Part shown: positions 53,594-64,000 of the stretch, in pieces
How positions within the stretch are numbered: the stretch's first letter is position 1
Layout: the number at the start of each line of letters is the position of its first letter
DNA from: Candidatus Hydrogenedentota bacterium
GTDB lineage: Bacteria > Hydrogenedentota > Hydrogenedentia > Hydrogenedentales > JAEUWI01
Direction: 5' to 3'
Assembly: GCA_034669905.1 (NCBI GenBank)
Contig: JAXMOL010000002.1
Coordinates: 160,001 to 224,000 of the forward strand
Length of the DNA: 64,000 nt
The notes under the pieces: model-generated
What the model was told of the DNA's origin: nothing
The model's input: only the letters and a program-made list of their open reading frames with translations
The model's database searches: none
Program-made: the position numbers and the translations under genes

Positions 53594-54025
53594 TTATTCA
53601 CCAATCGGGTTGCTGGTCGCGTCGGCATCGGCGCCGTCCGCGTAGCGAATCACCCCGCTGGAGTCGGTGAAGAAGCCTTTACCACCGGTCGTGCCATAAG
53701 CCGCAGCGTTGGCGTTGGCCGTGAAGGCGTTGGCGTCACCGCCGAGTACGAAGTTGTAGCCACTCTTCGTGCCACCCCAGTTACCATCGAGGAAGGAGGG
53801 GGTTGCGCCGGTCAGGTCCGCGAAGTCGGCGGTGTAGGCGTAGTTGGCGGCGTGGTAGGCCACTTCGGCACCCACGATAGTGCGCAGGTTACCAATGGCA
53901 CTGGACTCATTGGACTGCATCCGCGAACGGAGCAGGTTGGGAATGGCGATAGCCGCAATGATAGCGATAATGGCCACAACAATCATCAATTCAATCAACG
54001 TGAAACCTTTGTTAGCTTTTTTCAT
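53594..54025 (-). CDS. pilA: type IV major pilin
   Basis: MKKANKG|FTLIELMIVVAIIAIIAAIAIPN class III signal; monocistronic with AGGAGG RBS, sigma54 promoter and terminator. Confidence 0.9.
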   Translation of the reverse strand: MKKANKGFTLIELMIVVAIIAIIAAIAIPNLLRSRMQSNESSAIGNLRTIVGAEVAYHAANYAYTADFADLTGATPSFLDGNWGGTKSGYNFVLGGDANAFTANANAAAYGTTGGKGFFTDSSGVIRYADGADADATSNPIGE

Positions 54026-54374: not shown

Positions 54375-55205
54375 ATGGCATCCATTATCGGCCTCCTCGT
54401 CATTGTGTTGCTGTCGGTCATCGTGAACCGAATCGCCACCGTGGCCCTCACGCTGACCGGGCTTTCCCGCGAAATGGCCCGTTTCCAGGCCCGCTCGGCC
54501 TTCAGCACGACCGGCTTTACGTCAAACGAGACCGAAGCCATTGTGAACCACCCCGTTCGTCGCCGCATTGTGTTCACCCTGATGATGATTGGCAACGTGG
54601 GCCTCATCGGCGTCATTGCCACGACCGTATCCTCCGTCACCTCCGTCGAGACCGGGGATAACTACAGCCTGTGGGTCCGGATTGCCTACCTGGTCACCGG
54701 GTTAAGCATCCTGCTGGCCTTCTCCATGAGCAAGTGGGTTGATGACCAGCTCTTTAAATTCATTGGATGGGCATTGCGACGGTGGACCCTGGACGACATC
54801 CACGACTACCGTCACCTCCTAGCACTGGGCGAAGGCTACAGTGTGACCGAACTCAAGATGGACCCGGGCAACTGGCCGGTTGGTAAGCGCCTCGACGAAT
54901 TACGCCTTTCCCACGTGGGTGTCATCGTGTTGGCCATTCATCGGGCCGATGGCGATCTGGTAGGTTCGCCGATAGGCGCCACCTATATCCGCGCGGGCGA
55001 CCGCCTGACCGTATACGGCTTTAAGAAGGATGTGGCGCGGTTTAACCATAGCCGCGACGCGGAAGACGGGCCCAGGGCCTATCAGGAGTTGGTGGATGCA
55101 CGGGCCCCCGAAGTGGCCGCCGCCCAGGCCCGTCGTATGGAAGAGGAACGGCGCCGCCTCAAGCGGAGAACAGCCCGGAAGGCCTCAGATTCTTCTGGGG
55201 ACTAG
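54375..55205 (+). CDS. membrane protein with TrkA-C (RCK-C) domain
   Basis: LTGLSREMARFQARSAFSTTGFTSNETE..HPVRRRI; GKRLDELRL..VLAIHR..GDRLTVYG. Confidence 0.85.
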   Translation: MASIIGLLVIVLLSVIVNRIATVALTLTGLSREMARFQARSAFSTTGFTSNETEAIVNHPVRRRIVFTLMMIGNVGLIGVIATTVSSVTSVETGDNYSLWVRIAYLVTGLSILLAFSMSKWVDDQLFKFIGWALRRWTLDDIHDYRHLLALGEGYSVTELKMDPGNWPVGKRLDELRLSHVGVIVLAIHRADGDLVGSPIGATYIRAGDRLTVYGFKKDVARFNHSRDAEDGPRAYQELVDARAPEVAAAQARRMEEERRRLKRRTARKASDSSGD

Positions 55206-56383
55206 CTGGCTTCCCGCTTGGACGTGCCGAGCTCGACGACGTTTTCAGAATCGATGCCGTGCGCTTCCAACTTCTTCGCGAGATTGGAATAGGCTTCCTC
55301 GTGCTGTTCCAGAGTCGCCTCGTGACGGCGCGCCGCCAGCACCATCAGGATAATGACGATGGTCACGATCGCAAGCCCCTGAAAGAGCGCCAACTGGCTG
55401 TCGACCAAACTGGAGGTATTGCGCAGCAGGATGCCGCTGATGCCCAGGGTAATCGAGATCAGGTAGATAAAGAAGACCGCCTGACGCTGGGTAAATCCAA
55501 ACCAAACCAGACGATGGGAAAGGTGATCCGGTGCGCAGTGATCGATGATGTCGCGCAAGGTCCGGGTTTCGCCCTTGAGAATGCGCGCCATGATGACATA
55601 GCCAAAATCAAAGAGCGGCACCCCCAGAATCAGAATGGGTATGGTGCAGGAAATGATACGGTTTTCGGTCCATTCTCCCATCACGCCCAGGGCCGCCAGG
55701 GTAAAGCCCAGGAAGAAACTCCCCGAGTCGCCCATAAAGATGAGGGCCGGCTTGCTGTTGTAAATCAGGAAGCCCAGGTTGGCCCCAATCAACCCAATCG
55801 CCAACATGCCAAACCACGAAAGGCTCGTCTCAGTGTTGGTAAGGGCGTAGGCCTGCAAGGCGATGACCAGAAACATGCCGGCCACAATAACCGACAACCC
55901 CGAGGCCAACCCGTCCATATTGTCCGTGCCATTGAAAGCACTCGTGACCCCCACAATCCAGAGTATGGTCACAGACACATCAAGCACTTCATTCTGAAAC
56001 ACATTGATACGCACGCCATACTGGGAGAGTATCAGGGTCGCGGCCACCAGGGTGATGAGCTTGTAGAACCCGGCAATCCCGCCCACGTAGTCGTCTACCG
56101 CCCCTACCACGAGGCACATGAAGGCCCCGAGCAGAATCCCGTTCATACCGTCACTGCGGTAATCGGGCAACAACACGGCCACCGCAAAGGCAATGAAAAT
56201 CACAATGCCACCACCGCGCGGGACGGGCTGTTTGTGGATCTTGTTGTCCGCTACGGCATCCATCATCCCCACCCGGCGAAGCAGCATGATGGCCAAAGGC
56301 ATCAGCAGGGCGGAAATTATAAAGGCACTGCACCCCACCAGAATATAGGTGCGGGGCCAGTAGTCGGGCAAACTGAATAACAT
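55202..56383 (-). CDS. wecA: WecA/TagO-type undecaprenyl-phosphate GlcNAc-1-P transferase
   Basis: KIHKQPVPRGGG, GAVDD, DNMDGL, IFMGDSGS, DHLSHRL. Confidence 0.88.
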   Translation of the reverse strand: MLFSLPDYWPRTYILVGCSAFIISALLMPLAIMLLRRVGMMDAVADNKIHKQPVPRGGGIVIFIAFAVAVLLPDYRSDGMNGILLGAFMCLVVGAVDDYVGGIAGFYKLITLVAATLILSQYGVRINVFQNEVLDVSVTILWIVGVTSAFNGTDNMDGLASGLSVIVAGMFLVIALQAYALTNTETSLSWFGMLAIGLIGANLGFLIYNSKPALIFMGDSGSFFLGFTLAALGVMGEWTENRIISCTIPILILGVPLFDFGYVIMARILKGETRTLRDIIDHCAPDHLSHRLVWFGFTQRQAVFFIYLISITLGISGILLRNTSSLVDSQLALFQGLAIVTIVIILMVLAARRHEATLEQHEEAYSNLAKKLEAHGIDSENVVELGTSKREAS

Positions 56384-56431
56384 CCGTGTTATTCCTCATT
56401 TCATGGGCACGGGCTCACGGGCACAGGCCCA

Positions 56432-57424
56432 TCAAGAGCGGGCCTCAAAGAACTGTTCTATGGATTCTACCACAAGCGCGACTTCTGCATCAGTCATTGC
56501 GGGATATATGGGGATGGACACATGGTGCTGGTGCGCCTGCTCGGAACGGGGAAAGCACCCCCCCAGCGTGTGATGGGCCGGATGGTGCACCGGGCGTCCC
56601 GCGCCAATGCCGCGCTGGTTCAACCACTCCATCAGGGCGGGGCCTTCGGGTGTCGATACCACATACCGGAAATACACGGCGCCACCCGGTGCGGGCAAGA
56701 CCAGGGGCGTATTCTGAAACGCCGTATGGTATCGACCGGCGATCGCCCGACGGCGTTCCAGAAACTCCGGTAAACGGCGGAGCTGAACCCGACCAAGCGC
56801 CGCCTGAAAATCCGTCATCTTATAGGCATAACGTATTTGGAAATCCCCTCGGTTATCGTAGTCCCGCCGATCCCGGATGAAGTCCGCCAGGGAGCTGTCG
56901 TCCGTAAAGACCATCCCCCCCTCCCCCGTGGTCATGAGCTTGGTGGCGTAGAAGGAGGTCATGGCAATCAAGGTGGCACGCCCCGTCTCTCCACCGAAGG
57001 ATTGGGCCAGATCTTCGACCACCCGGGGATGATCGGGCAGGGCCGCCGTCGCACCAAACATATGGGGCACGACCACGGCCCGCACCGATGCGGGGACCAT
57101 CGCGGGATCCAGATTGTGTTGGGAATCGATATCACATAGAACCGGATGCGCATGTTGCCACGACACGGCCTGGGCGAGAGAGGCACAGGCATACGAGGGA
57201 ATGGCCACGCTGTCTTCGGGGCGTACGTTGAGCCCCACGAGTGCCAGGTGCAGGGCCGCCGTGCCGCTGTTCACCGCGATAGCATGACGGCGTCCCAGAA
57301 ACGCGGCGCACTCTTCCTCAAAGGCGGCCACTTCCTTACCTTGCGCCAGATGGCCACTGGCCACCACACGGGCCACGGCCGCGCCCTCCTCGTCACCGAC
57401 GGTCGGCTTACTGTGGGCAATCAT
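56432..57424 (-). CDS. DegT/DnrJ/EryC1/StrS sugar aminotransferase
   Basis: NSGTAALHLAL, EDLAQS, SFYATKLMTTGEGG, YKMTDFQAALG. Confidence 0.92.
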   Translation of the reverse strand: MIAHSKPTVGDEEGAAVARVVASGHLAQGKEVAAFEEECAAFLGRRHAIAVNSGTAALHLALVGLNVRPEDSVAIPSYACASLAQAVSWQHAHPVLCDIDSQHNLDPAMVPASVRAVVVPHMFGATAALPDHPRVVEDLAQSFGGETGRATLIAMTSFYATKLMTTGEGGMVFTDDSSLADFIRDRRDYDNRGDFQIRYAYKMTDFQAALGRVQLRRLPEFLERRRAIAGRYHTAFQNTPLVLPAPGGAVYFRYVVSTPEGPALMEWLNQRGIGAGRPVHHPAHHTLGGCFPRSEQAHQHHVSIPIYPAMTDAEVALVVESIEQFFEARS

Positions 57425-58106
57425 GGGGCACCCCCTCAAGAATCGTGCGGGCGTCGGAACCGCAATGCATCATCAAGTCAATAATCGACAGCTCCGGCAA
57501 AAAGGGCCCGGGCCCCTGGGGATACTCGGGCGCCGTCCACGATTGGATCTGAAGCGCGATTCCCGACGCTTCCAGGGCGTCCACATCCAGGTAGCTGTCC
57601 ACCGCATGGGCTCCACTGAGATAGGTATCGCCTTTCACTGCGTGAATCAGATGAATCAAGCGCTCGGTCGCCTCCCCCCGAACATGCAGTTCAGACGCGT
57701 AGACCACGGGCGTGTCGATCTCGAGCCGCAGCAGAATTCCCGTCAACAGGGAGCGGTTGAGATCGTTAAGATACTCCCAGGGCTGCTCGTAGACTTCCTC
57801 AAGCCAATCGGCGTAGCGCGAAAAGTACGGGGCCTTCCCATAGTGCTGGGCAATTGTGCGCCAATGCTTTCGCGCCCAGGGCCCCTTGTTGTCAATCACC
57901 ACTTCATCCAGGCGTTGGCCCAGCCGATCAAAGACGGGGACGGTCAGCGTGCGGGCGCCCTGTGGGGTCTTGATACGGTTCCGGTTCTGGTGGCCATTCT
58001 TGTTGTATTGAATGTTATCCAACACGATGAAGACATCAGCGCACAGTATCTTATGGATGTAGCGCAACCAGGGAAGATAATGTAACTGATGGATTCCCAC
58101 AAGCAC
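57408..58106 (-). CDS. WbqC family protein
   Basis: HQLHYLPWLRY..K, QNRNRIKT, YGKAPYF, YLSG, YPQ..F.PELSIIDL. Confidence 0.9.
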   Translation of the reverse strand: MLVGIHQLHYLPWLRYIHKILCADVFIVLDNIQYNKNGHQNRNRIKTPQGARTLTVPVFDRLGQRLDEVVIDNKGPWARKHWRTIAQHYGKAPYFSRYADWLEEVYEQPWEYLNDLNRSLLTGILLRLEIDTPVVYASELHVRGEATERLIHLIHAVKGDTYLSGAHAVDSYLDVDALEASGIALQIQSWTAPEYPQGPGPFLPELSIIDLMMHCGSDARTILEGVPHDCPQ

Positions 58107-58298
58107 GGCGGCGGACCCTCTCTGTCGCAATTCGTTGCACACACCATTCAAACAGGTTGACATACACCCCGTCCGACAATGATTCTACCTGAGTCATTTA
58201 TCGACGGCAACAGCCGGAAACTGAAACTATCCCGGCCGGCATTTCACGTAGGCCGCCCCCGTGGAACATGACCGGTTAGCGGAGAAAAGGAGTAATCC

Positions 58299-58892
58299 AT
58301 GAGCGAATACGTCCCACGCATTCTCGCCTTCGCCGGCAGCACCCGTAGCGATTCCTACAATAAGAAGCTGGCCGCCGCCGCGGCAGAGGCCGCCCGGGCT
58401 GCCGGAGCCGACGTGACCCTCGTCGACCTTCGTGACTACCCCATGCCCTTATTTGATGAAGATCTTGAATCGGCAGAAGGGCTTCCCGAAAGTGCGGTCA
58501 AGCTACGGGAATTGTTCCTGCGTCATGACGGACTGATCATCGCCTCACCGGAATACAACGGTTCCCTGAGCGCGGTGTTGAAAAACACCATTGACTGGCT
58601 GAGCCGTCGCCAGGGCGATGAAACACCGCTCATCTGCTTCCGCGAAAAGGTGGCCTTACTCCTCGCCGCTTCCCCCGGTGGCCTCGGCGGCCTCCGTGCC
58701 TTGCGACACCTCAACACCATCCTCCACGGGATTCAGGTCATCGTGCTCCCCGAACAGAAGGCCATTCCTGCGGCCCACAAGGTCTTCGACGACACGGGCA
58801 TCGCCGATGCCAAAGTGGCGAAATCCGTCGCCGATCTCAGCACCCGGCTCGTTGAAATGACCACGCGCATCCACCAGAAAAACAACGGCTAA
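58299..58892 (+). CDS. NADPH-dependent FMN reductase (ChrR/YieF-like)
   Basis: GSTRSDSYN, SPEYNGSLSAVLKNTIDWLSR, ASPGGLGG. Confidence 0.93.
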   Translation: MSEYVPRILAFAGSTRSDSYNKKLAAAAAEAARAAGADVTLVDLRDYPMPLFDEDLESAEGLPESAVKLRELFLRHDGLIIASPEYNGSLSAVLKNTIDWLSRRQGDETPLICFREKVALLLAASPGGLGGLRALRHLNTILHGIQVIVLPEQKAIPAAHKVFDDTGIADAKVAKSVADLSTRLVEMTTRIHQKNNG

Positions 58893-58916
58893 AGTCCAAC
58901 CGCCCCCTGCCGATAA
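58889..58916 (+). promoter_or_regulatory. sigma28 promoter 1
   Basis: TAAA-N15-GCCGATAA; the -35 box overlaps the FMN reductase stop codon. Confidence 0.85.
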
Positions 58917-58922
58917 GTAAAG

Positions 58923-59104
58923 CACAGGCCAAGACACGGAAGTCGCGGCGACGAATTGACACGGAGGTCAACGGAGGTGGCGAAAGAGACTAGATGAACC
59001 GTCGGGTGTCATCCCAACACCAACGCGATCGACGTTTTGTCCCACAGTCTTTCCATCCATGAGAGGCGCCATAGCACACGCTGTTGTGGCGTTTTTCTAT
59101 TTTA
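58923..59104 (+). ncRNA. candidate sigma28-dependent sRNA 1 (antisense to flagellin 2 RBS, CsrA-type loops)
   Basis: Promoter, GAC-ACGGA-GTC hairpins, AUCCC hairpin, 26-bp complement of 62168-62196, terminator at 59066-59104. Confidence 0.75.
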
Positions 59105-59191
59105 TCCGCCCTTTTTCCCGCGTACGCTGCCCCACGCCCCCCGACTTTTCGCCCACGCCCCAGCCGCCCATCCAACGCCGGCACATTTCCG

Positions 59192-59219
59192 CTAAAGGTT
59201 CTCGCTCCACCGCCGATAC
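59192..59219 (+). promoter_or_regulatory. sigma28 promoter 2
   Basis: TAAA-N15-GCCGATAC. Confidence 0.8.
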
Positions 59220-59225
59220 TCTAAT

Positions 59226-59393
59226 CACAAGGCGACGACACGGAGGTCAACGCCGGCACGACACGGACGTCATTGCTACTTATCCTGGATACATACTCAC
59301 AGGGTGGCCAATCCCACCACCTGCTATTGGGAGTGCCCCAGGGTCTTACCTCTGAAACGCGTTGCGGTCTACACTGCAACGCGTTTCAAATTT
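59226..59393 (+). ncRNA. candidate sigma28-dependent sRNA 2 (antisense to flagellin 3 RBS, CsrA-type loops)
   Basis: Two GAC-ACGGA(G/C)-GTC hairpins, AUCCC hairpin, CCCAGGGUCUUACCUCU seed, 13-bp perfect terminal stem at 59353-59388. Confidence 0.72.
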
Positions 59394-59425
59394 ATGGGGC
59401 ATACTCCACCGATCCCATATTTCTG

Positions 59426-59453
59426 CTAAAGTTTTCTGCGGCACCGCCGATAC
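59426..59453 (+). promoter_or_regulatory. sigma28 promoter 3
   Basis: TAAA-N15-GCCGATAC. Confidence 0.8.
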
Positions 59454-59459
59454 CATCAT

Positions 59460-59590
59460 ATTAAGAGACAGATTTAACGTGTTCTTCAAGGAACGCTGGG
59501 GTGTCTATCCCGCACCGTATTCCAGCCGTTAATCTCTGCTTCTTACCTCCCCTGGTTGCGTCATGGCATTGAACCATGGCGCATCTTTTA
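59460..59590 (+). ncRNA. candidate sigma28-dependent sRNA 3
   Basis: AUCCC hairpin, UCUUACCUCC seed, terminator TGCGTCATGG/CCATGGCGCA-TCTTTTT. Confidence 0.68.
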
Positions 59591-60361
59591 TGTGGGCTCC
59601 ACACCGTCATACAGCACTTCCTTCATGACTAGCCCCTGGGGCGGTGCGCAATGCCCCAGAAATGGCCCCCCCGACACCAACGCCTCCTGAAGAAACTCCG
59701 GACCAAAACGCCCCCGCCCTATCTCCACCAACGTGCCGGAAAGATTACGCACCATCTTATAAAGGAATCCATTGCCAAAAAACTCGATGTGCCACAGGTT
59801 CTGGCCGTCCCGGGGGCCCACCACCGCCCCTTGATGGAGCGTCGCGGCGTAAATCGTACGCACCGTCGTCTTCATCTGACACCCCGTGCTCTGAAACCCT
59901 GCGAAGTCATGGGTCCCCTCCAGTTGAGGCAAGAGCGACCGAATAAGGTCGATATCCACCCCGTAAGGAACCTGCCAGCTATAGGGAGCACTGAAGGGGT
60001 CCATTTCCCGACTGAAGTGAAAGGTATAGCAATAGCGCTTGGCCTTCGCTGAAAATCGGGCGTTAAAATCGGCAGAAACCGCTTCCAACGCCGTAATTTG
60101 GATTTCCGGCTCTAACATGCGACACAACGCATGGCGCAACGTGGGCGGCACCGCCTTGGGCCATTCACAGGAAAAGACCTGTCCCAGGGCGTGGACCCCC
60201 GCATCGGTGCGGCCGGCCCCCTGAATGCGGATAGGCTGAGAGGCAATCCGGCTCATAGCCGCCTCAATATCCCCTTGAACCGTCCGTTGGTCCTGTTGGG
60301 CTTGCCAGCCGGAGAAGGGCGTTCCAAGATAGCGCACAGTGCCTTTGAGTGTGGTGGTCAT
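59588..60361 (-). CDS. truA: tRNA pseudouridine(38-40) synthase
   Basis: FSGWQAQ, AGRTDAGVHALGQ, FNARFSA, GTHDF, GFLYKMVR, APPQGL. Confidence 0.96.
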   Translation of the reverse strand: MTTTLKGTVRYLGTPFSGWQAQQDQRTVQGDIEAAMSRIASQPIRIQGAGRTDAGVHALGQVFSCEWPKAVPPTLRHALCRMLEPEIQITALEAVSADFNARFSAKAKRYCYTFHFSREMDPFSAPYSWQVPYGVDIDLIRSLLPQLEGTHDFAGFQSTGCQMKTTVRTIYAATLHQGAVVGPRDGQNLWHIEFFGNGFLYKMVRNLSGTLVEIGRGRFGPEFLQEALVSGGPFLGHCAPPQGLVMKEVLYDGVEPT

Positions 60362-60672
60362 GGGCCTATTGTAATCGAGCCACGGATCCACCTACCACTT
60401 TCCGAGGGCCCGGAGAGCCAACGGTCGCGCTCTCACCCCACCATTTCCCGGCAGCCCCTCCACTGGGCGCAATACCTGGCGTCCATTCGGGGACTTATTT
60501 TCGGTTATCCGGGCCAGGCCGTGCACCGCATACCCCGGATGGCATCCAAAAAAACGAGGAAATTTTTCATTTTTTTTGCGGTGCGCGGTCCCGTATTGGC
60601 TGTTTCGGATTATTCGAAATCGTTTATGTCGGATTGAATCGGTGTGGGTCGGTGATTTTTTTTCAGAAAAAA

Positions 60673-60700
60673 CTAAAGTTGTCGCTCAAGTTGCCGATAA
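60673..60700 (+). promoter_or_regulatory. sigma28 promoter of the flagellin array
   Basis: TAAA-N15-GCCGATAA preceded by A/T tracts at about 60545-60672. Confidence 0.9.
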
Positions 60701-60706
60701 ATACTA

Positions 60707-61145
60707 CAGGTAAGCCGAAACAGGCCTTATTCAGGACAGTTTAAAAAAGTGAAATACGGAGTCCAGGGACGGGTTTCCGCGACATCATGGAGGATGGCGC
60801 ATTCAGCGCGGGGTATGCACCCGCACGACGGCCTCGAGGCCGACGACAACAATTGAATCACGTTGATCGAATACTTCGGTATGGATGAAGGCAGAGCAGG
60901 ATGCTCAACGGCTTCATCAAGAAGAAACGTCGCAGTTAACGAATTGCCTGAAGCACGGGACATGCCTCAGGGATAACGGAGACTGCTTTCGAAATCAATG
61001 GGACCAATCGATTTCACGTAGAAATCGGTTTCTGACGCACCGGACCATGGGACGGTAGCCGCCACACCGTGGTGGGTTACCCGGGATGGGACGTCAGAGG
61101 GAGCGCAAGGATGCGCTCTACCAACCACTCACGGAGGAATACATC
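60707..61145 (+). promoter_or_regulatory. long GGA-rich structured leader (multiple CsrA-type sites)
   Basis: About 19 GGA versus 2 TCC by hand count; GAGCA-GGA-TGCTC and GAGCGCA-AGGA-TGCGCTC hairpins. Confidence 0.7.
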
Positions 61146-61961: not shown

Positions 61962-62189
61962 TACACGTCGACAACCAGGGCGGCCGAACCTCAAGGGATA
62001 CGAGGGGCCGGAAACGGAATTTATGGCCACCGGCCGCCCTGATAATCTTCAACGTAGAGAAAGGAGAACATAGGACTGCGAGTACTTAACGAGTCGCGTC
62101 GTTGAGCATTCGGTTTTTGTCAACTATCACGGAAGAATGAATAACAAAGGGATCGGGAATCCCTTTGGCCACTCATGGAGGAAAGTACT

Positions 62190-63008
62190 ATGGGACTTCG
62201 AATCAACACCAACGTGGCGTCGCTTAACTCGGCGCGTACCCTGAGCCGCTCTACGAGCGCGCTTAACAAATCGCTGGAACGTCTCTCCAGTGGTCTCCGC
62301 ATCAACCGCGCAGCCGATGACGCTGCCGGTCTGGCCATCGCCGAAGGATTTCGGTCGGTGGTGCGGGGCACCCAGGTCGCCCAGCGCAACGCACAAGATG
62401 GGGTCAGCCTCGTGCAAACCGCGGAAGGGGCGTTGAGTGAAACCACCAACATCCTGCAGCGGGTACGCGAACTGGCCGTACAGGCCGCGAACGGAACGCA
62501 GAGCTCTGAAAACCGTGCGGCCCTGAACACCGAAGTATCGCAGCTGCTCGCACAGATCGATGATATCGCCTTCGACACCGAATTCAACGGTGTGGCGGTA
62601 TTGAGCGGCAGCAGCACCCTCACCTTGCAAACCGGCGCCGAATCGGGTCAGACCCTGCAGATTGCTATCAGCAGTGGTGCGGGCCAGGCCGCCATCGGCG
62701 TGAGCACCGTCAACATTTCCACCTCGGCCGGCGCCGTCAGTGCCCTCAGCCAGGTGGACGTAGCCCTGCAGCGGGTCAATTCCCTCCGCAGTAACCTCGG
62801 TGCCATCCAGAATCGTCTCGAATTCACCATCAATACCCTGGCGATTCAGGAAGAAAACTCGGCCGCCTCAGAGAGTGCGATCCGGGATGCGGACATTGCC
62901 CGCGAAACCATTCAGTTTACGCGGAACCAGATTCTGGTCAGTGCCGGCACGTCGGTACTTGCCCAGTCCAATGTGGTTCCCCAGACGGCGTTGCAGCTTC
63001 TCGGCTAA
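62190..63008 (+). CDS. fliC: flagellin 2 (272 aa)
   Basis: Same flagellin motifs; GGAGG RBS. Confidence 0.97.
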   Translation: MGLRINTNVASLNSARTLSRSTSALNKSLERLSSGLRINRAADDAAGLAIAEGFRSVVRGTQVAQRNAQDGVSLVQTAEGALSETTNILQRVRELAVQAANGTQSSENRAALNTEVSQLLAQIDDIAFDTEFNGVAVLSGSSTLTLQTGAESGQTLQIAISSGAGQAAIGVSTVNISTSAGAVSALSQVDVALQRVNSLRSNLGAIQNRLEFTINTLAIQEENSAASESAIRDADIARETIQFTRNQILVSAGTSVLAQSNVVPQTALQLLG

Positions 63009-63227
63009 TTCGCCATCCATAGTTTAAACCGGTTGTAACGTGGTGGCTCCGGCCCTTCCTTTGGAGGGGTCGGAGCAGCACCGTAACTATACGGAAGGAG
63101 TGCATCAGTCGGCCGATTTGCCGTCCATTTACCCACCGCGGGGATAAATAGACGATGAGAAGGCCACGAAGAACATACACCGGGTTGGTTAGGGATACCC
63201 GACCGGGTGATCTTGGAGGTAAGATCC

Positions 63228-64000
63228 ATGGGATTACGTATAAATACGAACATCCCGGCTCTCAACACGAGCCGGGTGCTCGATCGTTCCAGCCGTGCCT
63301 TGAACCGCAGTCTGGAACGGTTGAGCAGTGGTCTCCGCATCAATCGCGCAGCCGATGATGCGGCAGGCCTCGCTATTGCCGAGGGCTTTCGCACCCAGGT
63401 GCGGGGCACCCAGGTGGCGCAACGCAATGCGCAGGATGGAATCAGTCTCGTACAGACGGCCGAAGGGGCGTTGAGCGAAACGACCAACATCCTGCAACGC
63501 ATTCGAGAACTCGCGATTCAGGCCGCCAACGGAACCCAGAGTTCCGCCAACCGCCAGTCACTCAACAACGAAGTGCAGCAGCTGATTGCCCAGGTGGAAG
63601 ACATCGCTTTGGACACTCGGTTTAATGGCATCAACGTGTTGAGCAGCAACCAGTCCATCACGCTCCAGACCGGAGCCAATCCGAGCCAATCCCTTCAGGT
63701 GACCATCGGCGGCGCACGCAGCACCGATCTGCGCGTAAGCGCCGTCAATATTTCGGCCGCGGCAGGCGCTATCAATGCCATCAGCCAGGTCGATATCGCG
63801 CTGGCAAGTGTGAACACCTTACGGAGCAGTCTCGGTGCCTTTCAGAACCGGTTAGAATTCACCATCAATACCCTGGCCATTCAGGAAGAGAATTCGGCGG
63901 CCGCCGAAAGTGCTATCCGGGATGCCGACATTGCCCGGGAAACGATTCAGTTTACACGGAATCAGATCCTCGTGAATGCCGGTGTCAGTGTATTGACCCA
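63228..64000 (+). CDS. fliC: flagellin 3, truncated by window end
   Basis: MGLRINTNIPALNTSR..RLSSGLRINRAADDAAG..LGAFQNRLEF; GGAGGT RBS; open to 64000. Confidence 0.95.
   Translation, partial: MGLRINTNIPALNTSRVLDRSSRALNRSLERLSSGLRINRAADDAAGLAIAEGFRTQVRGTQVAQRNAQDGISLVQTAEGALSETTNILQRIRELAIQAANGTQSSANRQSLNNEVQQLIAQVEDIALDTRFNGINVLSSNQSITLQTGANPSQSLQVTIGGARSTDLRVSAVNISAAAGAINAISQVDIALASVNTLRSSLGAFQNRLEFTINTLAIQEENSAAAESAIRDADIARETIQFTRNQILVNAGVSVLT

Follow-up and report, generated by a model that had tools for sequence, protein, structure and literature searches.

Three putative sigma28-type small RNA genes beside the flagellin cluster of a Candidatus Hydrogenedentota bacterium and their predicted pairing with two flagellin paralogs

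The array and the anatomy of its units

The stretch analysed here, called the window, comprises 64 kb of a Candidatus Hydrogenedentota bacterium (assembly GCA_034669905.1, 7.4 Mb and 95.7% complete; contig JAXMOL010000002.1, positions 160,001-224,000), and all positions below are in window numbering unless a contig is named. It carries an array of three consecutive promoter-unit-terminator arrangements, flanked by an FMN-reductase-family gene and the convergent truA, with three flagellin genes (here flaA, flaB and flaC) lying past truA (Table 1). Judged from sequence, the array is a real and conserved set of three small RNA (sRNA) genes. The motif TAAAG-N14-GCCGATA, which we take to be the FliA (sigma28) consensus, occurs ahead of the units at 58890, 59193 and 59427 and ahead of the flagellins at 60674, with no further copy in the 64 kb; none of 100 shuffles of the window reached four copies (shuffle mean 0.00), and strict copies number nine in the 7.4 Mb genome, which also encodes fliA (TIGR02479 above cut-off). 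We considered whether promoter 1 could be a by-product of the stop codon that its -35 box overlaps, and rejected this since the promoter persists in relatives where that stop lies further upstream. All three flagellins start with ATG and lie under the fourth promoter, and the motif scan of the window found no sigma28 promoter between them. A close paralog, flaD, is unlinked on contig C15 with its own promoter, and a divergent flagellin is found on contig C39 (G, C and L numbers are our handles for genomes, contigs and loci). In a flagellin protein tree, flaA and flaB cluster by lineage and not by position, so that the paralog classes are defined by position and leader rather than by protein sequence.

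Table 1. Features of the array and of the flagellin cluster (window numbering)
Feature	Position	Strand	Remarks
Sigma28-type promoter, unit 1	58889..58916	+	-35 box overlaps stop codon of upstream FMN-reductase-family gene
Putative sRNA unit 1	58922..59104	+	~183 nucleotides (nt); start placed from the -10 box
Unit 1 CsrA-type module	58928..58969	+	2x2-internal-loop hairpin 58928-58949, second GGA hairpin 58958-58969; putative binding, from the SELEX consensus (see text)
Unit 1 central hairpin	59005..59021	+	ATCCC loop 59011-59015, predicted kissing loop
Unit 1 seed	59039..59063	+	antisense to 62172-62196 (flaB ribosome site and AUG)
Unit 1 intrinsic terminator	59061..59104	+	hairpin 59061-59097, -21.2 kcal/mol
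Sigma28-type promoter, unit 2	59192..59218	+
Putative sRNA unit 2	59225..59396	+	~172 nt
Unit 2 GGA hairpins	59232-59253 and 59260-59271	+
Unit 2 central hairpin	59303-59321	+	ATCCC loop at 59311
Unit 2 seed	~59337-59355	+	antisense to 63213-63232
Unit 2 terminator hairpin	59353-59388	+	-25.0 kcal/mol, weak T-run
Sigma28-type promoter, unit 3	59426..59452	+
Putative sRNA unit 3	59459..59592	+	~134 nt; no GGA hairpins
Unit 3 central hairpin	59500-59516	+	ATCCC loop at 59507
Unit 3 seed core	59541-59550	+	antisense to 63215-63224
Unit 3 terminator	59557-59590	+	hairpin 59557-59583, -15.1 kcal/mol; converges on truA stop
truA (tRNA pseudouridine synthase)	59588..60391	-	neighbour only; TIGR00071 above cut-off
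Sigma28-type promoter, flagellin cluster	60673..60700	+
flaA leader	60706..61145	+	440 nt, GGA-rich; CsrA-type hairpin 61103-61116, GGA in ribosome site
First flagellin, flaA	61146..61961	+	not the preferred pairing target
flaB leader target site	62146..62196	+	GGGA-loop hairpin 62146-62166, followed by ribosome site and AUG (62190)
Second flagellin, flaB	62190..63008	+	predicted target of unit 1
flaC leader target site	63180..63232	+	hairpin 63180-63207 (loop GGGAT, 63192-63196), followed by ribosome site and AUG (63228)
Third flagellin, flaC	63228..64000, continues past window end	+	units 2 and 3 predicted to target it

All three units place a pyrimidine-rich seed ahead of the terminator and carry a central hairpin with a loop of 7-9 nt on a stem of GGTGT/ACACC, GGTGG/CCACC or GGTG/CACC (units 1, 2 and 3), while hairpins of the form GAC-ANGGAN-GTC number two in unit 1, two in unit 2 and none in unit 3. 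Folding z-scores are -1.66 for unit 1 (15 of 200 shuffles were equally stable), -4.6 for unit 2 and -4.7 for unit 3. A terminator scan accepts units 1 and 3 and rejects unit 2 for its poor T-run, so that read-through from unit 2 into unit 3 is possible. A small-protein reading was rejected, as the open reading frames (ORFs) of at least 10 codons differ among the genus copies and are absent from several genomes. Each unit thus combines its own promoter, an intrinsic terminator (with a weak T-run in unit 2) and the lack of a conserved ORF, as a trans-acting sRNA does. Rfam 15 gave three matches between 57500 and 62000, all far under their gathering thresholds, of which a weak RsmY-like one (E 0.75) falls in the flaA leader, outside the array; at eight relative loci nothing but tRNAs passed gathering.

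An earlier note made from the letters of this DNA had described much of this anatomy, and its promoters of the flagellin type, its units without a credible ORF and its clear 5' GGA hairpins in units 1 and 2 all hold. Its claim of a terminator for each unit stands as far as the hairpins go, which are present in all three, but the scan does not score the one of unit 2, and the GGUG-AUCCC-CACC formula that it gave for the central hairpin is right about the ATCCC loops of all three units but simplifies stems and loops that vary. It left unnamed what the GGA hairpins, absent from unit 3, appear to be, namely CsrA-type sites.

As a weak sign of expression, the units are covered by contigs that came from close relatives in four RNA libraries (three studies; unstranded and without a DNA control), some of them ending at terminator 1 or beginning near the unit starts. 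Three flagellin RNA contigs from two studies start at 60715-60726, near the predicted 60706, which without a DNA run is a weak hint. Coverage shares of the RNA runs are only 0.05-0.11, and uncovered stretches such as 60444-60711 and much of truA are uninformative.

Conservation and distribution of the RNA family

When 30 truA loci were examined (our own included), the three-promoter array was found to adjoin truA in six of eight same-genus relatives, and one further genus has at least two promoters there. Among the remaining relatives, G008 keeps all three units slightly further from truA and G003 has units 1 and 2 elsewhere; the array was counted as kept in seven of the eight same-genus genomes. 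The units themselves are constant in relatives, and the DNA between them varies in length and content. The three-gene array is mainly an arrangement of this genus and family. Two further features were observed in passing: about 1.6 kb of DNA that looks transposase-like by eye lies between array and truA in G008 (L009, L231), and a long palindromic element lies between units 1 and 2 in G005 (L004).

A covariance model, R1, built from 18 unit-1-type RNAs with unit 1 itself in the training set, matches all three units of the own genome (unit 3 weakly, E 8e-5) together with a fourth copy on contig C63; its match to unit 1 spans 218921-219105 of contig C2. R1 matches 101 of 135 Candidatus Hydrogenedentota genomes, and these matches track the presence of flagellins: with flagellin hits taken at E<=1e-36, 95 genomes have both, 28 neither, 6 the RNA only and 6 a flagellin only. 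Across the 18 RNAs, 99.5% of the 378 pair cells in the four consensus helices are kept and six pairs show compensatory change, a level reached by none of 500 shuffles, with slid controls at 16-56%; the unit-3-type RNAs likewise have compensatory pairs. Among the loci with this RNA layout that were listed and read, 80 of at least 120, most are titled Candidatus Hydrogenedentota, and titles naming Nitrospirales were taken as unreliable because those loci carry near-identical RNAs. Calling gave 63 units, reduced to 62 when one (L187) was dropped as a flagellin leader; the terminator rule called no unit for G004 unit 3 or at loci L189, L215 and L220.

The fourth family member of the own genome (L233 1359-1575, G000:C63:15858-16073) has its own sigma28-type promoter, a GTCCC loop and a distinct seed, with homologs in G005 and G007 (L236, L237). 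Its target search found none that is clear: flaB ranks 178, and a search allowing two mismatches yielded no convincing site. Shorter relatives were also observed. Family members of about 115 nt (L229 1069-1183; also L102, L104 and L115) have two GGA hairpins, with neither a central hairpin nor a seed matching a flagellin, and the flagellins of their host genus mostly have CsrA-type leader loops. Two Bacillota-titled loci, L051 (1501-1600) and L113, hold a 65-nt sigma28-type unit of only two GGA hairpins and a terminator; the one in L051 adjoins tRNA genes, and the unit is a candidate minimal CsrA decoy outside the phylum.

Predicted pairing and CsrA-type hairpins

The seed of unit 1 would form about 24 base pairs (bp) with flaB, interrupted by two single bulges and covering both the Shine-Dalgarno (SD) sequence and the AUG, unit 2 a duplex of about 19 bp with flaC, and unit 3 a 10-bp core on the flaC SD. 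Ranked with 25-nt seeds against 13,848 SD-bearing candidate starts, which come from a simple ORF rule and are in many cases spurious, flaB placed 2 for unit 1 and flaC placed 6 for unit 2 and 29 for unit 3, with flaA at 1105, 4888 and 4695 for units 1, 2 and 3. Within the genus the best flagellin was flaB for unit 1 (9/9), and flaC for unit 2 (9/9) and for unit 3 (7/7 called). Over 34 genomes, 46 of 51 RNAs preferred a downstream flagellin to the first one (18/23 with one genome per genus), and pairing within the own genome came to -720 against -628 +/- 19 kcal/mol with genomes swapped (25 RNAs, 14 genera, permutation p ~1e-5, a value that is generous because genera within one family are still related). 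The flaB spacer of G042 is quite different, and its seed follows it (-41.3). All 46 strong duplexes cover at least four of the five SD bases. For these comparisons the two seeds of G038 and G049 were positioned manually, the start pattern did not catch the first flagellin of G042, and divergent flagellins (contig C39, G009) were excluded from the pairing, ranking, leader and loop tests. A toehold model, in which the anti-SD part is open and the rest masked, fits 31 of 46 RNAs (mean unpaired 0.50 versus 0.36) and was not established.

The leaders differ with flagellin position. First or single flagellins mostly have a CsrA-type loop, CA[ACT]GGANG, upstream of the SD (40/45), which is rare in downstream ones (3/59); the latter mostly show a GGGA[TCA] loop instead (51/59, versus 10/45 for first or single flagellins). 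The UCCC loop of each unit complements the GGGA loop in its target leader. In the 46 pairs that were selected on seed energy alone (out of 53 RNAs, those at <=-25 entered the loop test), UCCC in the RNA and GGGA in the target are predicted to be open (0.87 and 0.93) and 4-7 bp are possible. At the fifth loop position, for which the 40 RNAs whose pairs have a GGGA core were counted, Watson-Crick matches are found for 15 of 18 representative pairs when 9.8 are expected (p=0.002), and in three genera G-C takes the place of A-U. As a separate observation, the flaA leader holds nine ANGGA motifs versus 1.7 expected and could be a CsrA sponge built into the mRNA.

The GAC-ANGGAN-GTC hairpins, invariant in all 18 aligned RNAs, vary less than anything else in the alignment. 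Their loops in units 1 and 2 are close to RUACARGGAUGU, the CsrA consensus from SELEX (PMC7652899; statements on published systems here follow excerpts of the papers cited). The first of the two hairpins is part of a longer stem with a 2x2 internal loop, a shape shared by 45 of 62 family RNAs and all 12 flaD-type leaders and by none of 33 first-in-cluster and none of 59 downstream leaders, and the 5' module of units 1 and 2 shares both shape and spacing with the flaD leader. The host has adjacent fliW and csrA. Neither Hfq (PF17209) nor ProQ (PF04352) gave a match, in a genome 95.7% complete, which leaves their absence unproven.

Proposed mechanism, alternatives and known systems

We propose that the units are three stand-alone, sigma28-type, trans-acting sRNAs whose pairing represses two of the flagellin paralogs, a reading that we hold to be probable. 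FliA, on switching on flaA-flaB-flaC and the unlinked flaD, would also make these RNAs. The UCCC loop would then contact the GGGA loop 30-40 nt upstream of the target start codon, and a duplex of 10-25 bp would cover the SD, and for units 1 and 2 the AUG as well, blocking translation of flaB by unit 1 and of flaC by units 2 and 3. With a CsrA-type loop at the same place, flaA and flaD would be controlled by CsrA-FliW, as in Bacillus subtilis and Campylobacter jejuni (PMC4894983). Units 1 and 2, with hairpins shaped like the flaD leader, most likely bind CsrA too. In the simplest case one RNA would lower FlaB or FlaC and, by soaking up CsrA, relieve FlaA and FlaD, as a delay circuit. Whether CsrA is sponged or serves as cofactor, the likely output would be the proportions of the subunits, or their order, in a filament built from several flagellins. 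Minor flagellins are often located near the base of mixed filaments. The parts of this reading are not equally firm: that the units are real transcribed sRNAs is very likely, that they pair with the flaB and flaC start regions is quite likely, and that the pairing represses and that the units bind CsrA are each likely. For the role of CsrA binding, a sponge falls a little short of an even chance, a cofactor or stabiliser is possible with less weight, and little effect is rather improbable.

Several results weigh against this reading. The co-occurrence of the RNA and a flagellin is not independent and suggestive only, because 21 of the 28 genomes that have neither belong to one family. One RNA contig spans 58822-59401 and takes in both promoter 1 and terminator 1, a course expected of DNA or of read-through. 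With longer seeds of 35-37 nt the ranks become 3, 433 and 31 for units 1, 2 and 3, and the fall of unit 2-flaC from 6 to 433 means that the choice of seed window affects the rank. Once self-folding is deducted, unit 1 keeps a predicted net binding of -22 kcal/mol, and units 2 and 3 keep a modest -11.6 and -7.9 kcal/mol, when non-cognate pairs give -4 to -9 kcal/mol, in a model that cannot score kissing loops. Counted over distinct combinations of genera, the loop test gives only 13 of 18 (p=0.016), and in the own genome the loop contact of unit 1 is just 4 bp. Of 53 family RNAs, seven (the own-genome C63 copy included) have no strong flagellin duplex, so that other targets exist; five of 51 favour a first flagellin; and one RNA of G016 (L196 1110-1291) fits each of the three flagellins equally well (-42 to -48). 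Any anti-SD RNA also pairs with many genes, and the other top-ranked starts remain candidate targets. Among individual RNAs, we observed that the seeds of L014 426-600, L202 1292-1467 and L208 1106-1279 match no fetched flagellin and probably have other targets, and that an RNA of G010 (L211 1007-1166) is complementary to the start region of the first flagellin (-30.6).

A first alternative makes CsrA a needed cofactor, an obligatory stand-in for Hfq. Free CsrA, with flagellin export blocked and FliW held by flagellin, would bind the 5' hairpins and stabilise the RNAs or bridge them to leader GGA sites, so that interchangeable modules of loop and seed extend the export checkpoint of FliW-CsrA to selected paralogs; flaB and flaC would be shut off under the checkpoint of flaA, with unit 3 as CsrA-independent basal repression. 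This fits the lack of an Hfq or ProQ match, the joining of CsrA module and seed in most family members, the further upstream GGA motifs in the flaB and flaC leaders and the burial of part of each seed in a stem of its RNA (mean unpaired 0.36), and there are precedents in the promotion of SR1-ahrC pairing by CsrA in B. subtilis (PMC6546359) and in the shielding of CsrB from decay by CsrA (PMC7652899). We nevertheless regard it as unlikely. Unit 3 and its relatives retain loop and seed without any GGA hairpin, so that at least one class should be able to pair in the absence of CsrA. Antisense RNAs with a kissing loop and a long duplex need, in principle, no chaperone, and this counts against an obligatory cofactor as well. 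Were such CsrA-loaded guides real, the phylum would program filament subunit order with modular RNAs derived from a flagellin leader, under a one-base leader code in which an ANGGAN loop means direct CsrA control and an AGGGAN loop control by RNA.

The other alternatives each take up one part of the evidence. If the units were pure CsrA sponges, small decoys like CsrB or RsmZ whose flagellin complementarity is a by-product of anti-SD-like or leader-derived sequence, the invariance of the two near-consensus hairpins and the short members consisting of little else (115 nt in G033; 65 nt in L051 and L113) would be accounted for; we find this very unlikely, given that the seeds are paralog-specific and covary with own-genome targets, that unit 3 has no GGA site at all, and that the others have just 2-3 versus 13-22 in CsrB/C (PMC6546359). 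In terms of class membership, units 1 and 2 share the GGA-loop consensus of CsrB/RsmZ RNAs without their many sites; RNAs of that class are under BarA-UvrY (GacS-GacA) control, and the promoters here have the sigma28 form. Duplexes might instead decide mRNA fate, triggering RNase III cleavage or Rho-dependent termination within the three-gene mRNA and uncoupling downstream cistrons, including the gene after flaC. Here the long unit 1 duplex and the lack of a sigma28 promoter between the flagellins are in favour, as is the cutting of RNAIII-coa duplexes by RNase III (PMC2837412), but the coverage of the SD by every strong duplex is the usual mark of an initiation block; the two are not mutually exclusive, and we consider the mRNA-fate explanation quite unlikely. 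That the units are non-functional relics of duplicated flagellin promoters and leaders, to which the match of the 5' module with the flaD leader would lend itself, is extremely improbable and largely refuted by conservation: the stems change in a compensatory manner, the terminators are dedicated, R1 matches most genomes of the phylum, and the 3' half is antisense, not sense, to flagellin leaders.

McaS and GadY of Escherichia coli, reportedly Hfq-dependent and not sigma28-driven, are among the closest known systems. Each is a single sRNA that both pairs with mRNAs and binds CsrA (PMC7652899, PMC4132741), but they are gammaproteobacterial, with no FliW and no targeting of flagellin paralogs, and no sequence likeness of the units to them was found (no Rfam match). 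FlaX of Vibrio cholerae resembles the proposed RNAs in outcome: it is a flagellin-co-expressed sRNA that represses a secondary flagellin mRNA, sets filament composition and pairs at several sites of the 5' untranslated region (UTR), the ribosome site included (PMC11879080). It is, however, cut by RNase E from the flaA 3' UTR, belongs to RpoN/FlrC class III and is bound by ProQ, and CsrA goes unmentioned in the main text of that paper (PMC11879080); the units, by contrast, lie upstream of truA and not in a flagellin 3' UTR, with their own sigma28-type promoters, different seeds among paralogs and CsrA-type hairpins, in a genome where ProQ was not found. Nor does the class of Hfq- or ProQ-dependent sRNAs apply on the evidence of host genes, as neither model has a match in the 95.7% complete genome. 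RNAIII acts on coa in Staphylococcus aureus through an imperfect SD duplex together with a loop-loop contact (PMC2837412), but that contact lies in the coding region and not upstream of the SD as here, and RNAIII has no CsrA module and is not flagellar. Listeria LhrC1-5 have UCCC motifs, and LhrC1-4 form one locus of paralogs each with its own promoter; they are nearly identical and additive (PMC4132741), unlike the units with their distinct seeds, and have no CsrA module and no flagellar role.

Other sRNAs of flagellar cascades, some of them FliA-dependent, also tune filament synthesis, namely the sigma28-dependent UhpU, MotR, FliX and FlgO of E. coli (PMC10578931) and CJnc170 and CJnc230 of C. 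jejuni (PMC11187230). The four of E. coli derive from UTRs, and their pairing is with coding regions or regulators; the abstracts of these two papers describe no CsrA-binding, paralog-specific anti-flagellin RNA. The Hag/FlaA-FliW-CsrA checkpoint shares fliW-csrA and the two GGA stem-loops in flagellin leaders, and the two-hairpin leader RNA flaA_mini of C. jejuni can titrate CsrA (PMC4894983), but the titrator there is an mRNA leader and here would be dedicated sRNAs with CsrA-type sites. CsrB/C sRNAs and FliW are anti-correlated (PMC4894983), unlike the present case of CsrA-type sRNAs in a FliW genome.

What appears to be new is the combination, in stand-alone sigma28-type sRNAs, of CsrA-type hairpins, a kissing loop and paralog-specific seeds; arrays of paralogous sRNAs were already known. 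On this point the earlier note, which had seen the novelty in the array and knew of no equivalent, has to be corrected: the array is real, but tandem paralogous sRNAs have been described in Listeria (LhrC1-4, PMC4132741), and the unit of interest is the phylum-wide family of stand-alone sRNAs. Its central proposal, that paralogous sRNAs induced together with the flagellins tune which flagellin paralog is translated, is supported by conservation, covarying structure and paralog-specific, covarying complementarity, and the promoters and hairpins whose loss in relatives it had named as counter-evidence are conserved in relatives. Our literature search, which left subscription papers, bioRxiv supplements and motif-table supplements uncovered, found no paper on this RNA family or on sRNAs of the phylum. 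The proposed repressor RNAs offer a testable answer to how near-identical flagellins under one promoter differ in amount or timing. If true, they would give a phylum in which we found no sRNA work a conserved family of such RNAs whose targets can be named, would place CsrA-binding sRNAs in a FliW-type bacterium, where they were thought unneeded, and would represent a compact Hfq-independent design of kissing loop, seed and protein dock whose natural variants display the pairing code.

Some further observations were made around the locus. A terminator-like hairpin between flaA and flaB (62085-62106) could attenuate the downstream flagellins, and just beyond the window an ORF of 106 amino acids follows flaC (G000:C2:224166-224490), presumably FlaG-like. 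A small sigma28-type gene whose product starts M(T/K)(V/I)QCC(V)CK is found repeatedly in the phylum (L093, L107, L111, L080, L071); a GGA hairpin covers its ribosome site, and it likely encodes a cysteine-rich flagellar-regulon protein under CsrA control. Upstream of the array, genes for a WecA/MraY-like transferase, a sugar aminotransferase and WbqC (55202-58163) may form a glycosylation cluster, and the gene at 53594-54025 resembles one for a type IV pilin.

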